Translations under genes and position numbers: made by a program | Assembly (NCBI GenBank): GCA_037305845.1 | Contig: CP147778.1 | Span: forward strand, 384,001-448,000 | Origin: Candidatus Freyarchaeum deiterrae | GTDB lineage: Archaea > Asgardarchaeota > Jordiarchaeia > Jordiarchaeales > Jordiarchaeaceae | Reading direction: 5' to 3' | Length of the DNA stretch: 64,000 nt | Shown: piece after piece, positions 56,520 through 64,000 of the stretch | Layout: the number at the start of each line of letters is the position of its first letter | Position numbering within the stretch: the first letter of the stretch is position 1 | The notes under the pieces: model-generated | What the model was told of the DNA's origin: nothing | Database searches by the model: none | The model's input: the letters and a program-made list of their open reading frames with translations, nothing else

Positions 56520-57392
56520 ATGGAGAAGAAGTATCCTTATGGAAAAGGGATAGTTAAATGGATTTCAACCGACTGGTTGATGGATCATCTTGAAGATAAA
56601 AACTTTATGATTTTGGACACTCAACCGGACATCCACGATTATATCCAAGAGCATATACCTAACGCAGTCTACATGAGCGAGAAAATGCTGCGTGCCCCCT
56701 TAAGGAGAATGCCCGGTGCATACGTTTCTCCGGATATTGCCCAGCTAATCTACCGCCGCCTAGGCCTGCGGCCGAATGTACCGGTAATTGTCTATACAGG
56801 TACTGGGCCTTTCAAAGGTTGGGGCGATGGCTTGGAACAGACGATGGTAGTGTATAGTCTAATCCGCTTTGGTCACAACAATGTCTACGTTCTCGATGGG
56901 GGCATTGACAAATGGAAGGCAGAGGAGGGTACGCTCACCAAAGTCTACACCAACGTTGAAGAGTCCAACTTTAAAGTAAAGGTTCGACGCGAATTCTTTG
57001 TTGAATACGAAGAATTCAAGAAGATAAAGGACAATGAAGATGTGCTCCTGCTGGATGCACGCCCTACAAACGTTTACGAGGGTCAAGGGCCATGGATTAA
57101 GCCCGGACATATCCCCGGAGCGGTCAATCTGCCGTGGGCCAGCCTTATGGACGATAAGAACAAGCGGTTGCTCAAGCCCGACGATGCGATTCAATCTATT
57201 CTGGATGCACATAACGCAACACCGGACAAGAACATTATCTGCTCGTGCGGAACGGGTCGCGAAGCGACCAACGAGTTTCTCCTGTTTAAGTACTATCTGA
57301 GCTATCCCAATGTCAAAATTTATGAGGGTTCCTTCACCGAATGGGTTGATTACCCCGAAAACCCAACGGTGGTTGGAAAAAGCCCTCGCTAA
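56520..57392 (+). CDS. Tandem-domain sulfurtransferase (rhodanese)
   Basis: [29 protein letters not shown] active site, YEGSFTEW. Confidence 0.92.
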
Positions 57393-57480
57393 TTGAATCG
57401 AATTGCATTGAATTATCTCTGACTGCTCCACCTTCGGCCTGTTATTAATTAAATGACATCTTAGCTAGCGTTTCGTCAAA

Positions 57481-58032
57481 TCACCGCTTAGTGCTTACCT
57501 CAACTCCGTCTTCGTCTGCTGGAATATATTTGCTATCGTATTTTCCAGAGGTTCTCACATAGTTCAAGTAGTCCCTCATAAGCTTCTCGAATATTCCTGC
57601 ATTATCCGCCACAACAACACTTCCATTGTGAAGCTGATCCTCAATTAACCGCAGATAATTCATATATTCTCTTTTTTCAGCGTCGAGGAAGACCATGTCG
57701 AATTTGTCTTTAATCATTGGCAAAAGTTCCATGGCATTTCCGACCAGTACCTCTACGACTGGCTTTATTTCGGCTTTGAGTATGTTCTCCTTCGCCGTCT
57801 TCGCCTCAGCCGCGTCGATCTCAATTGTAATAATACTTGCGTCACTCTCCAATTCTTTTCCCATCAGGATTGCCGAGTAGCCAATAAGTGTTCCAATTTC
57901 CAGAACGCGTTTGGGTTTAATCTTATGAATAACCTCCACTAGAATTTTACCCTTGCGCGGGCCAATTATAGGAAGTGACTCCTCCTCCGACATCTTTTCT
58001 ATAGTTCTTAAAATCTTATCCGCTTTGCTCAT
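57481..58032 (-). CDS. O-methyltransferase (COMT-like)
   Basis: LEIGTLIGYS, FDMVFLDAEK, VADN. Confidence 0.9.
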   Translation of the reverse strand: MSKADKILRTIEKMSEEESLPIIGPRKGKILVEVIHKIKPKRVLEIGTLIGYSAILMGKELESDASIITIEIDAAEAKTAKENILKAEIKPVVEVLVGNAMELLPMIKDKFDMVFLDAEKREYMNYLRLIEDQLHNGSVVVADNAGIFEKLMRDYLNYVRTSGKYDSKYIPADEDGVEVSTKR

Positions 58033-58288
58033 AGTTATTCCCTATATCATCATTATACTCTAATCAATTTCAAATTTCTAGAGAAACTTTCTACCTAAAA
58101 TTATGGTTTCGGCATCTGCGATATTCTGCTGAAATCTTGTTTCCTCAACGGGGTGAAAGCAATCTTTTCAATTTAAAGATAGAAAAATAGGAATGGTTTA
58201 TGAAGCAGCTCATTCCATTTGTATCTTTCATTATTACTATGAGCTAGGATATTCACAAGCCTAAATTAGGCTAGTCAACGCTTTTTCA

Positions 58289-58855
58289 CTAATCAGCGTT
58301 TCCTTTTAGTCTTCTAGTCCAATTAACTAGATACTGTAGTACTAATTTTAATATTTCTCTTGTTTGCTGATCTTTAAGTTTGCCTTTGTCATCAAATTTT
58401 TCTGTTGCATTTGTTAAAAAGAATTCTGGGGCGTTCATAGGATGCATGTTAAGAGTAACGCAGATTTGTCTAAGATGATACTGGGCTTTCGCAGCTCCGA
58501 AAGGTCCTATGGATGCGCTCAATATACCGACTGGCTTATCGTTAAAGGGATTGTCCCCGAAAGGTCTTGAAGCGGCATCGATTGCGTTTTTTAGAACACC
58601 GGATACAGAGTAGTTGTATTCTGGTGTTGCAATTAGAAGAGCGTCTGCAGCCTTAATTTTTGCTTTGAAGTCCTTAACCTTTTGGGGCGGATTATTTTCG
58701 AAGTCTTGATTGAATGGGGGGATTCCCTCAAGGTCAAATATCTCGAGTTTTGCATCCTTCGGCAACACTTCCATAGCTGCACGTAGCAATGCTTTGTTGT
58801 AAGAACCTTTTCTTAAACTACCTGCAAAACCTAAAATAGAAATTTGATTAGCCAT
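58289..58855 (-). CDS. NAD(P)H-dependent FMN reductase
   Basis: GSLRKGSYN, TPEYNYS..GVLKNAID. Confidence 0.92.
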   Translation of the reverse strand: MANQISILGFAGSLRKGSYNKALLRAAMEVLPKDAKLEIFDLEGIPPFNQDFENNPPQKVKDFKAKIKAADALLIATPEYNYSVSGVLKNAIDAASRPFGDNPFNDKPVGILSASIGPFGAAKAQYHLRQICVTLNMHPMNAPEFFLTNATEKFDDKGKLKDQQTREILKLVLQYLVNWTRRLKGNAD

Positions 58856-59044
58856 AATTTACCTCCTCTTAATTTGCCCACTCATGGTTCACAAGAAAAA
58901 GAAAAGGGGTAACCTTCCTTAAATTGTTATCGCATGTAAAATGAGTTAGTAAACTTGCATATTCTATGTTACTATCCTCAATATGGAAACGCTTATTAGT
59001 TTCAGCCTTTTCATCTATTTACTCATACGAGAAGGAGGGATGTC

Positions 59045-59356
59045 ATGCCAATAGATCCTGATTTTCAGAAGAATCGAAAGATCGCCAATCAACATCAAGG
59101 CCATAATGTCTGGGGGCCAGTGAAACCCCCAAAACAACTTGGCATACATGGAACAAATGTGGCGGTTGACTGGGACATTTGCGAAGGAGACGGCATATGT
59201 ATCGACGTCTGCCCAGTAACCTTATTTGACTGGGGCGATTCTCCGGGGAATCCAATCTCTGACAAGAAATCCGACCCAGCCAGAGAAACAGAATGCATTC
59301 AGTGTATGGCGTGTGAAAATCAATGTCCTGTCCAAGCAATAAAAGTAACCGCCTAA
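59045..59356 (+). CDS. zfx: Zinc-containing dicluster ferredoxin (Sulfolobus/Thermoplasma type)
   Basis: N-terminal extension IDP.F...HxxH.VWGPV.PP..LGIHGT, CxxDxxC..CP, KSDP, CxxCxxC..CP. Confidence 0.88.
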   Translation: MPIDPDFQKNRKIANQHQGHNVWGPVKPPKQLGIHGTNVAVDWDICEGDGICIDVCPVTLFDWGDSPGNPISDKKSDPARETECIQCMACENQCPVQAIKVTA

Positions 59357-60606: not shown

Positions 60607-63538
<2,932 letters not shown>

Positions 63539-63597: not shown

Positions 63598-63726
63598 TTA
63601 TCCGCCTGTTGCGGTATGCCTTCCAATGCAGCAGTCGCAGAGAGATGTTTCGCCACAGTACGGACAGCAGCATTGGCATTCGTCTATCGGGTTGCCACAT
63701 GTTTCGCACGTTTCTATTTCTATCAA
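63598..63726 (-). CDS. Cys-rich microprotein, 42 aa with 10 Cys and C-terminal Gly-Gly; absent from the ORF track
   Basis: Manual translation MIEIETCETCGNPIDECQCCCPYCGETSLCDCCIGRHTATGG*; GAGGAGG RBS 9 nt before TTG; stop 59 nt upstream of korA. Confidence 0.75.
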   Translation of the reverse strand: MIEIETCETCGNPIDECQCCCPYCGETSLCDCCIGRHTATGG

Positions 63727-64000
63727 GCTATTTTTCCTCCTCTTATAATCCTTCAAAATATCCCGTGCATTAGGTAGATAAGTTCTATCCGAGAAAAAAA
63801 AGGTTTCGATTTTTGAGACCCGCGTGAACGTTTCCCACTAAGATTTGAGAACTAAATATGAACCAGAAAGTCTGGTGCATTTTGAGGGTTGAATACACTT
63901 TCTGCGGGGGAGATTTTTGTCTTTTTTAGTTTTCAATTCACGTCTAAAATAAGCCTTAAGAAATCTTCTTTAAGAAAAAGGAGGAAAAATCTAGCTGATA

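Follow-up and report, generated by a model that had tools for sequence, protein, structure and literature searches.

A 42-aa, cysteine-rich microprotein encoded by the archaeon Candidatus Freyarchaeum deiterrae belongs, on the sequence comparisons reported here, to an unnamed and widespread archaeal family that is tied to two-subunit 2-oxoacid:ferredoxin oxidoreductases (OFORs). Its gene lies in a 64,000-nt stretch of contig CP147778.1 (hereafter the window), directly upstream of the genes that encode the two subunits, alpha and beta, of such an enzyme, and the family is broader than the original prediction, made from this DNA alone, could know. We propose that the peptide is very probably an accessory protein dedicated to OFOR and acting in trans. 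No description of the family was found in the literature.

The reading frame, on the minus strand, has the sequence and coordinates given in the original prediction, as well as the claimed GAGGAGG ribosome-binding site and a gap of 59 nt between its stop codon and the co-oriented ATG of the alpha gene at 63538 (Table 1). The real start codon is TTG; an alternative, longer in-frame TTG at 63756 has no ribosome-binding site, and GGAGG occupies the same spot in four genomes of the host genus. The frame had been described as hidden, and it does fall below the cutoff of the open-reading-frame track, but the identical 42-aa product is already contained in public gene calls, in an NCBI-derived collection and in the ESM Atlas. 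Two metatranscriptome contigs reach alpha, and neither spans the 42-aa frame. Of all open frames of at least 40 codons in the host genome, 0.4% end in Gly-Gly, and this rarity, together with purifying selection in the homologues, argues that the frame is more than a chance occurrence; judged in this way, it is a genuine protein-coding gene.

Table 1. Features of the microprotein gene and the adjoining OFOR genes (window positions)
Feature	Position	Strand	Remarks
42-aa Cys-rich microprotein	63598..63726	minus	TTG start; TAA stop at 63600-63598
GAGGAGG ribosome-binding site	63736..63742	minus	9 nt before TTG
8-Cys core	63631..63708	minus	C7-x2-C10-x6-C17-x-C19-x-C21-P-Y-C24-G-E-x3-C30-x-C32
Conserved C-terminal A-T-G-G tail	63601..63612	minus	8-12 residues past the last core Cys
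OFOR alpha	61601..63538	minus	645 aa; CoA-binding domain III in one chain with domains I-II; scores 823 bits with NF041170 (cut-off 800)
OFOR beta	60607..61611	minus	334 aa; TPP and a single [4Fe-4S] cluster; NF041171

The original count of ten cysteines in 42 residues (24%) is correct for the window peptide; across homologues eight of them are fixed (C7, C10, C17, C19, C21, C24, C30 and C32). Seven of the eight occur in 185 of 185 distinct proteins and C30 in 184 of 185, although most of these positions belonged to the search pattern, and all eight are invariant in both HMM-selected alignments (A1 and A2). The two CxxCG knuckles, C7-E-T-C10-G and C21-P-Y-C24-G in the window peptide, are conserved in the family, as is Tyr/Phe23. 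The CxCC(C) clusters that were said to follow them reduce to CxC pairs because C20 and C33 vary, position 20 being usually Val, Ala or Arg and position 33 Cys or Ala.

By motif the peptide is a C(P)XCG microprotein, that is, one shorter than 70 aa that carries a pair of C(P)XCG motifs. Its cysteine density had been taken as typical of metallothioneins and small Zn/Fe knuckle proteins; a metallothionein is rejected on the conserved Tyr/Phe23, the fixed spacing, the conserved tail, the linkage to OFOR and the lack of any metallothionein Pfam match. Archaeal C(P)XCG microproteins such as Brz, HVO_2753 and HVO_0758 (Zn_ribbon_3, HVO_2753_ZBP) share the small size and two CxxCG/CPxCG knuckles ten residues apart, and the Brz gene likewise lies directly upstream of its target gene. 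The present family differs from them in its two additional fixed CxC pairs, its A/V-T-G-G terminus and its OFOR partner. A Pfam search with the window peptide gave no match at E up to 1, and neither Pfam, NCBIfam nor the PDB holds a match for the family; among 40 members, 15 touch Zn_ribbon_3 at E up to 1 (best 3.7e-5), and the nearest named ESM Atlas cluster is HVO_2753-like, at 0.85. Two AlphaFold2 models are of low confidence (pLDDT 59.5 and 60.1), Foldseek with one of them returned nothing at E up to 0.001, and the best fold-search rows include rubredoxins, all non-significant (E 3 or more). In a comparison with RiPP precursors, TIGR04165 matched 1 of 40 members at E 0.23, and none of the ten recurrent neighbours that were annotated is a maturase, an annotation that covered part of the clusters. 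The bound metal is not predictable from C(P)XCG motifs (PMC11241148); we envisage that the knuckle cysteines C7/C10/C21/C24 probably form a structural zinc ribbon and that a second, exposed site would be made up of the two CxC pairs, C17/C19 and C30/C32, often joined by C33.

The original prediction had mentioned similar uncharacterised peptides in other archaea, and homologues were indeed found, with the Cys spacing and terminal Gly-Gly conserved. A HMMER search of a library clustered at 50% identity yielded 38 matches, most of them true relatives, and a profile built from 40 sequences recovered 491 clusters; in GTDB genomes profile scans located at least 565 loci, and in metagenomes at least 559. 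Members come from Bathyarchaeia, Nitrososphaeria, Methanoperedens, Thermoplasmata, Methanomassiliicoccales and the host's Jordiarchaeia genus, and those that are named are hypothetical proteins. The peptide was found in 50 of 251 Thermoproteota genomes, in 2 of 251 genomes around a Thermoplasmata-type genome and in 2 of 251 around Methanoperedens. Within the host's phylum (332 genomes) the full-length peptide is confined to the host's genus; other matches there (E ~1e-6) are ordinary single zinc ribbons and not family members. Median pairwise dN/dS was 0.23 and 0.08 for two length classes, the pairs being non-independent, and one within-genus pair differs at 9 synonymous sites and 1 non-synonymous site. 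As read from these substitutions and from the codons used at the tail (below), selection is acting at the protein level, tail included.

Several matches depart from the family pattern. Longer apparent homologues with Sigma70, ribosomal S7 or POR domains (P0158, P0159 and P0169) are likely chimeric or frameshifted short contigs and were excluded. Two peptide duplicates (L064:2719-2793 and L074:2786-2860) are truncated, lacking the last CxC and the tail, and lie ~2.2 kb upstream of an intact copy; elsewhere a frameshift, possibly an assembly error, fuses the peptide to the start of alpha (L083:2821-3243). Three matches (L084, L090 and L093) sit on contigs labelled as bacterial MAGs that are probably misbinned, since the alpha of L090 groups with Bathyarchaeia.

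The expectation that the terminal Gly-Gly would be conserved proved right. It is present in 195 of 204 distinct sequences, ending in ATGG (119), VTGG (38), TGGG (17), TTGG (12) or another GG form (9), with ATGA in two, AGGD in one and no such tail in six; similarity ranking favours sequences with the tail, although the scan of genomes had the sensitivity to recover copies that lack it. The tail is retained despite a five-residue insertion at locus L328, and all fusions that we read still present it as their free C-terminus, which fits a flexible arm with a recognised end. All four codons are used at each of the terminal Thr, Gly and Gly positions and the stop codon lies a median of ~41 nt before alpha, and an RNA-level cause of the Gly-Gly, through overlap with the alpha ribosome-binding site, was rejected on these grounds. 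Tail-less copies, where read, are stand-alone second or third copies in ammonia oxidisers and never precede OFOR. Such paralogues in Nitrosopumilus-type genomes (L275, L281, L282 and L284-L286) keep the 8-Cys core, carry other end residues and are unlinked to OFOR, and they offer a natural control for what the tail does. An intact ATGG is also carried by some copies that lie far from OFOR. We suggest that the flexible A-T-G-G-COO- tail could act as a docking arm that enters a narrow pocket, either of OFOR or of the Fe-S machinery, a function for which it need not be chemically activated.

The genes downstream of the peptide had been called korAB. This name is too specific, as they pass the cut-offs of the broad archaeal 2-oxoacid:ferredoxin oxidoreductase equivalogs NF041170 and NF041171. 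The closest solved structure is the S. tokodaii OFOR 5B46, and the cysteine motifs of the beta cluster are conserved; two-subunit OFORs carry one cluster only, in beta (PMC13768988). The predicted association with an adjacent Fe-S enzyme is upheld by a conserved gene neighbourhood that links the peptide strongly to OFOR. In counts drawn from related, and hence non-independent, genomes, 143 of the 153 loci whose downstream DNA could be read have alpha directly after the peptide, separated by ~0-70 nt (median ~41). In a Thermoproteota sample chosen independently of the query, the peptide lies directly upstream of alpha in 48 of 50 bearers and 1.6 kb away in one, and all 50 encode an alpha homologue. 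The same order recurs in Methanoperedens, Nitrososphaera viennensis, other ammonia oxidisers and Thermoplasmatota; the N. viennensis peptide is WP_258914140. The link is one-way: the peptide was undetected (E 1e-8) in 113 of 163 sampled genomes with an alpha homologue, indicating that OFORs mature without it. A 99%-complete genome of the host genus has neither the peptide nor this alpha orthologue.

In a tree of alpha subunits, the peptide-linked enzymes form one large clade that contains a nested peptide-less subclade and two isolated losses, with the Asgard and Methanoperedens copies placed among Bathyarchaeia-type sequences; this topology suggests that the peptide, alpha and beta genes move together in apparent transfers. 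More distant alpha homologues that we read have no such frame upstream. We considered alpha Arg57 as a mark of an interface and rejected it, as it is fixed in peptide-linked alphas yet present in peptide-less outgroups. A predicted complex of peptide, alpha, beta and 4Fe-4S cluster scored 0.30 against a mark of 0.32, in a run without controls. The conserved arrangement ties the gene to a single clade of two-subunit archaeal OFORs, with which the peptide would be co-produced, to which it is very probably dedicated and to which it presumably binds. Elsewhere, the peptide-OFOR unit of a Nitrososphaeraceae lineage directly adjoins amoA and amoB (L189:5001-10124), and one Thermoplasmata copy lies 1.2 kb downstream of a different oxidoreductase, of gamma-delta/alpha/beta type and with its own ferredoxin domain (L193:709-5162).

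Natural fusions offer a view of function. A 118-aa protein consists of an N-terminal NifU/Nfu domain followed by the full peptide, ends in ATGG and is encoded directly before OFOR alpha. We read it on 17 contigs, and it occurs in three clusters (P0155, P0156 and P0160). Its Nfu domain scores above the Pfam PF01106 cut-off in two of the three, resembles NFU1 structures (E 8e-5) and has a CxxC that is invariant in eight sequences. Nfu domains deliver [4Fe-4S] clusters to client enzymes. The fusion is a single evolutionary event in one lineage; in two loci (L331:7001-7357 and L336:7001-7357) its neighbours are MCM and a Ski2-like helicase. Some ammonia oxidisers have a second OFOR that is arranged beta-alpha, and there a fusion of an Lrp/AsnC ligand domain with the peptide directly precedes beta; at another such locus alpha is missing and an intact beta follows the Lrp/AsnC-peptide fusion. 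Lrp/AsnC-peptide fusions in Nitrosopumilus-type genomes lie at L339:6001-7430, L342:4849-8160 and L344:6001-6324, preceding a second beta-alpha OFOR or a lone intact beta gene, or standing among Lrp/AsnC genes.

The surroundings of the peptide are rich in Fe-S and redox genes. Recurrent neighbours include ferritin-like proteins (50 loci), 4Fe-4S ferredoxins (24) and rubrerythrin (15), and IscS, IscU, DsrE and ferredoxin-thioredoxin reductase at 7 loci each. Downstream of OFOR beta the window encodes a tandem rhodanese sulfurtransferase, an O-methyltransferase, an FMN reductase and a 103-aa ferredoxin (56520-59356); the best NCBIfam match of this ferredoxin (59045-59356) is a zinc-containing type, below cut-off, and it recurs in 24 related loci. 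Beyond the window's end, upstream on the peptide's strand (L009:4335-9348, corresponding to 448335-453348), lies a redox block that encodes a flavoprotein resembling dihydrolipoamide dehydrogenase, a glutaredoxin, a ferredoxin-thioredoxin reductase with a fused rubredoxin-like domain, and a PfpI-like protein. This block is separated from the peptide by a divergent methyltransferase/ATP-grasp-like fusion of 689 aa; all these identifications were made by eye, with partial confirmation on a homologue. One Bathyarchaeia-type lineage (L042, L047, L048, L068, L246 and L248) carries a conserved DsrE-IscS-IscU-TRASH unit, with a TRASH protein of 53-57 aa, near or joined to the OFOR genes, and in the two of these genomes without the peptide (L246 and L248) IscS-IscU-TRASH is joined directly to them. 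The 57-aa TRASH/YHS-like frame in those two was considered as a functional replacement for the peptide and rejected: it is part of IscS-IscU-TRASH, sister loci contain this frame as well as the peptide, and loss of the peptide went with that of an intervening block.

The Nfu fusion, together with neighbours of Fe-S and oxidative-stress function, leads us to the reading that we prefer, namely that the peptide loads or repairs the OFOR Fe-S cluster, and we hold this reading tentatively, at somewhat short of an even chance. The exposed CxC site would carry an Fe-S cluster, or iron, or assist in its transfer, so that the one [4Fe-4S] cluster of beta is loaded or repaired, making the peptide a client-specific maturation adaptor whose proposed client is OFOR beta. 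Of the roles first put forward, the Nfu fusion thus favours that of a metal or sulfur carrier serving an Fe-S enzyme. Nfu/NfuA-type carriers and client-specific Fe-S maturation factors are likewise small and Cys-liganded, and an Nfu domain is fused to the peptide in one lineage, whereas the window peptide itself has no Nfu fold, Nfu sequence or NifU-C domain. Our literature search found no OFOR-specific maturase. Against this reading stand the single origin of the Nfu fusion, the sampled genomes whose OFORs mature without the peptide and the ATGG-tailed copies distant from OFOR; the Lrp/AsnC fusions point instead to sensing or regulation, and the Fe-S and redox neighbours may just reflect a general redox island.

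The same neighbours could also serve a redox-switched protector or inhibitor of OFOR, a free-standing counterpart of domain VII of the D. africanus PFOR, in which oxidised CxC pairs would form disulfides or release metal and the Gly-Gly carboxylate tail would plug a substrate or cluster channel until thioredoxin reverses the block. Consistent with this, the peptide is retained in all aerobic ammonia-oxidiser loci read; rubrerythrin, ferritin-like protein, glutaredoxin and ferredoxin-thioredoxin reductase genes are found nearby, also just beyond the window's end, upstream on the peptide's strand; a tail of small residues with a free carboxylate suits a narrow channel; and domain VII provides a precedent (PMC13768988). 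We nevertheless consider such a switch unlikely. The OFORs of aerobic Sulfolobales are O2-stable (PMC13768988), the more distant alpha homologues have no peptide frame upstream, a PDB search showed no sequence similarity to domain VII, and the Nfu fusion is left unexplained. That fusion is equally unaccounted for if the peptide regulates OFOR expression, either like Brz, the zinc-finger microprotein encoded upstream of bop (PMC2253796), or as a cis-acting leader peptide. Regulation would suit a gene that is co-oriented and first in its unit, the Lrp/AsnC ligand-domain fusions, and the Lrp/AsnC genes near stand-alone paralogues in ammonia oxidisers, but the peptide is acidic, with no basic DNA-binding surface, and its tail is conserved even where the gene is unlinked, inverted or downstream, which together with the freely varying synonymous sites argues against a cis-acting or RNA-level element; a regulatory role is thus very improbable in our view. 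We give as little credence to an electron-transfer mini-subunit, with rubredoxin-like iron or an Fe-S cluster, that would replace the ferredoxin domain V absent from two-subunit OFORs (PMC13768988). Eight fixed cysteines and the rubredoxins among the non-significant fold-search rows speak for it; on the other hand, the peptide has no CxxCxxCxxxCP motif and no Fer4 or PorD match, while the window's 103-aa ferredoxin matches both, a true 4Fe-4S ferredoxin often adjoins the peptide (the 24 loci above and the window itself), one copy is found close to a PFOR equipped with a ferredoxin domain, and the tail would have no explanation.

The tail is central to the remaining possibility, the conjugatable tag of the original prediction, which had rightly denied the peptide a beta-grasp fold: at 42 aa it has no ThiS match (PF02597 or related). 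An E1 (UbaA/MoeB) would adenylate the terminal Gly of this non-beta-grasp peptide and turn it into a sulfur carrier or modifier for OFOR, the OFOR cluster receiving its sulfur from a thiocarboxylate, or the enzyme acquiring a conjugate or persulfide; in the case that sulfur goes to the cluster, this overlaps with the maturation role preferred above. The near-universal Gly-Gly, always at a free C-terminus, is as expected of such chemistry, and the SAMP, ThiS, MoaD and Urm1 carriers also present a free C-terminal Gly-Gly on a short flexible tail. An E1 is encoded elsewhere in 50 of 53 peptide-bearing genomes, a co-occurrence that says little because E1 is near-universal (12 of 14 control genomes). 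Alpha Cys30 is kept in 77 of 78 peptide-linked alphas and 5 of 27 others, and the only peptide-linked lineage to have replaced it has a peptide with a GA end, a coincidence of one event with a chance probability of ~6%; this loss, however, falls on a long branch on which 10 of 162 near-invariant sites changed, and Cys30 aligns with Val, Ile, Leu or Ala elsewhere and is probably buried. E1 activation is, moreover, distinctly unlikely given that the peptide has no beta-grasp surface for E1 recognition, that the host's E1, JAB and ThiS proteins have no tblastn match in 188 peptide neighbourhoods, with OFOR as the fixed partner instead, and that OFOR-linked copies can end in GA or GGD. The known carriers further differ in the residues before the Gly-Gly and in their linkage to E1, JAB, MoaE or ThiG. 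The peptide's x-A/V-T-G-G tail lacks the hydrophobic-Pro-x-[VI]-x-GG strand of ubiquitin-like proteins from the same organisms, whose tails form a hydrophobic strand, mostly with Pro (LPAVAGG, IPVIHGG and FVPIAGG); its x-x-A-T-G-G follows an unstructured linker. If the E1 route were true, with sulfur or a covalent tag delivered specifically to OFOR to build or protect its [4Fe-4S] cluster, ubiquitin-like chemistry would have a new scaffold, carried by ammonia-oxidising archaea and Bathyarchaeia.

E1-like, JAB and ThiS-like genes number four each in the host genome, and none lies near the locus. Two of its four ThiS/SAMP-like proteins (L301 and L302; 747762-748019 and 2331278-2331547) bear C-terminal extensions after the Gly-Gly, so JAB-type processing would be needed. 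In three Nitrosopumilus-type genomes (L348, L349, L351 and L353-L356) the ThiS-family domains found all occur as N-terminal fusions whose Gly-Gly is internal, one on E1 itself and one on a ~258-aa protein, and no free GG-ended ThiS was found.

Small elements of unclear or protective role are encoded with other OFORs, including epsilon of the five-subunit Hydrogenobacter/Aquifex PFOR, the PorE polyferredoxin of M. maripaludis and domain VII of the D. africanus PFOR (PMC13768988). Those extras belong to one-, four- or five-subunit enzymes, unlike the partner of the peptide, and no family or PDB match ties the peptide to them. A 2026 review of OFORs (PMC13768988) lists no such third gene and is silent on zinc, small proteins, maturation, Bathyarchaeia and Nitrososphaeria.

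Two-subunit OFORs are considered complete alpha-beta enzymes, and a conserved third gene, often absent from annotation or labelled as just a hypothetical protein, travels with them in Bathyarchaeia, ammonia-oxidising archaea, Methanoperedens and one Asgard genus. The near-invariant Gly-Gly offers a clean test of whether ubiquitin-type activation requires a beta-grasp fold, and the peptide may be required for heterologous expression of these OFORs. For the biology of its carriers, the third gene suggests that an oxygen-sensitive enzyme on which aerobic nitrifiers depend has a maturation or protection factor that has gone unrecognised.
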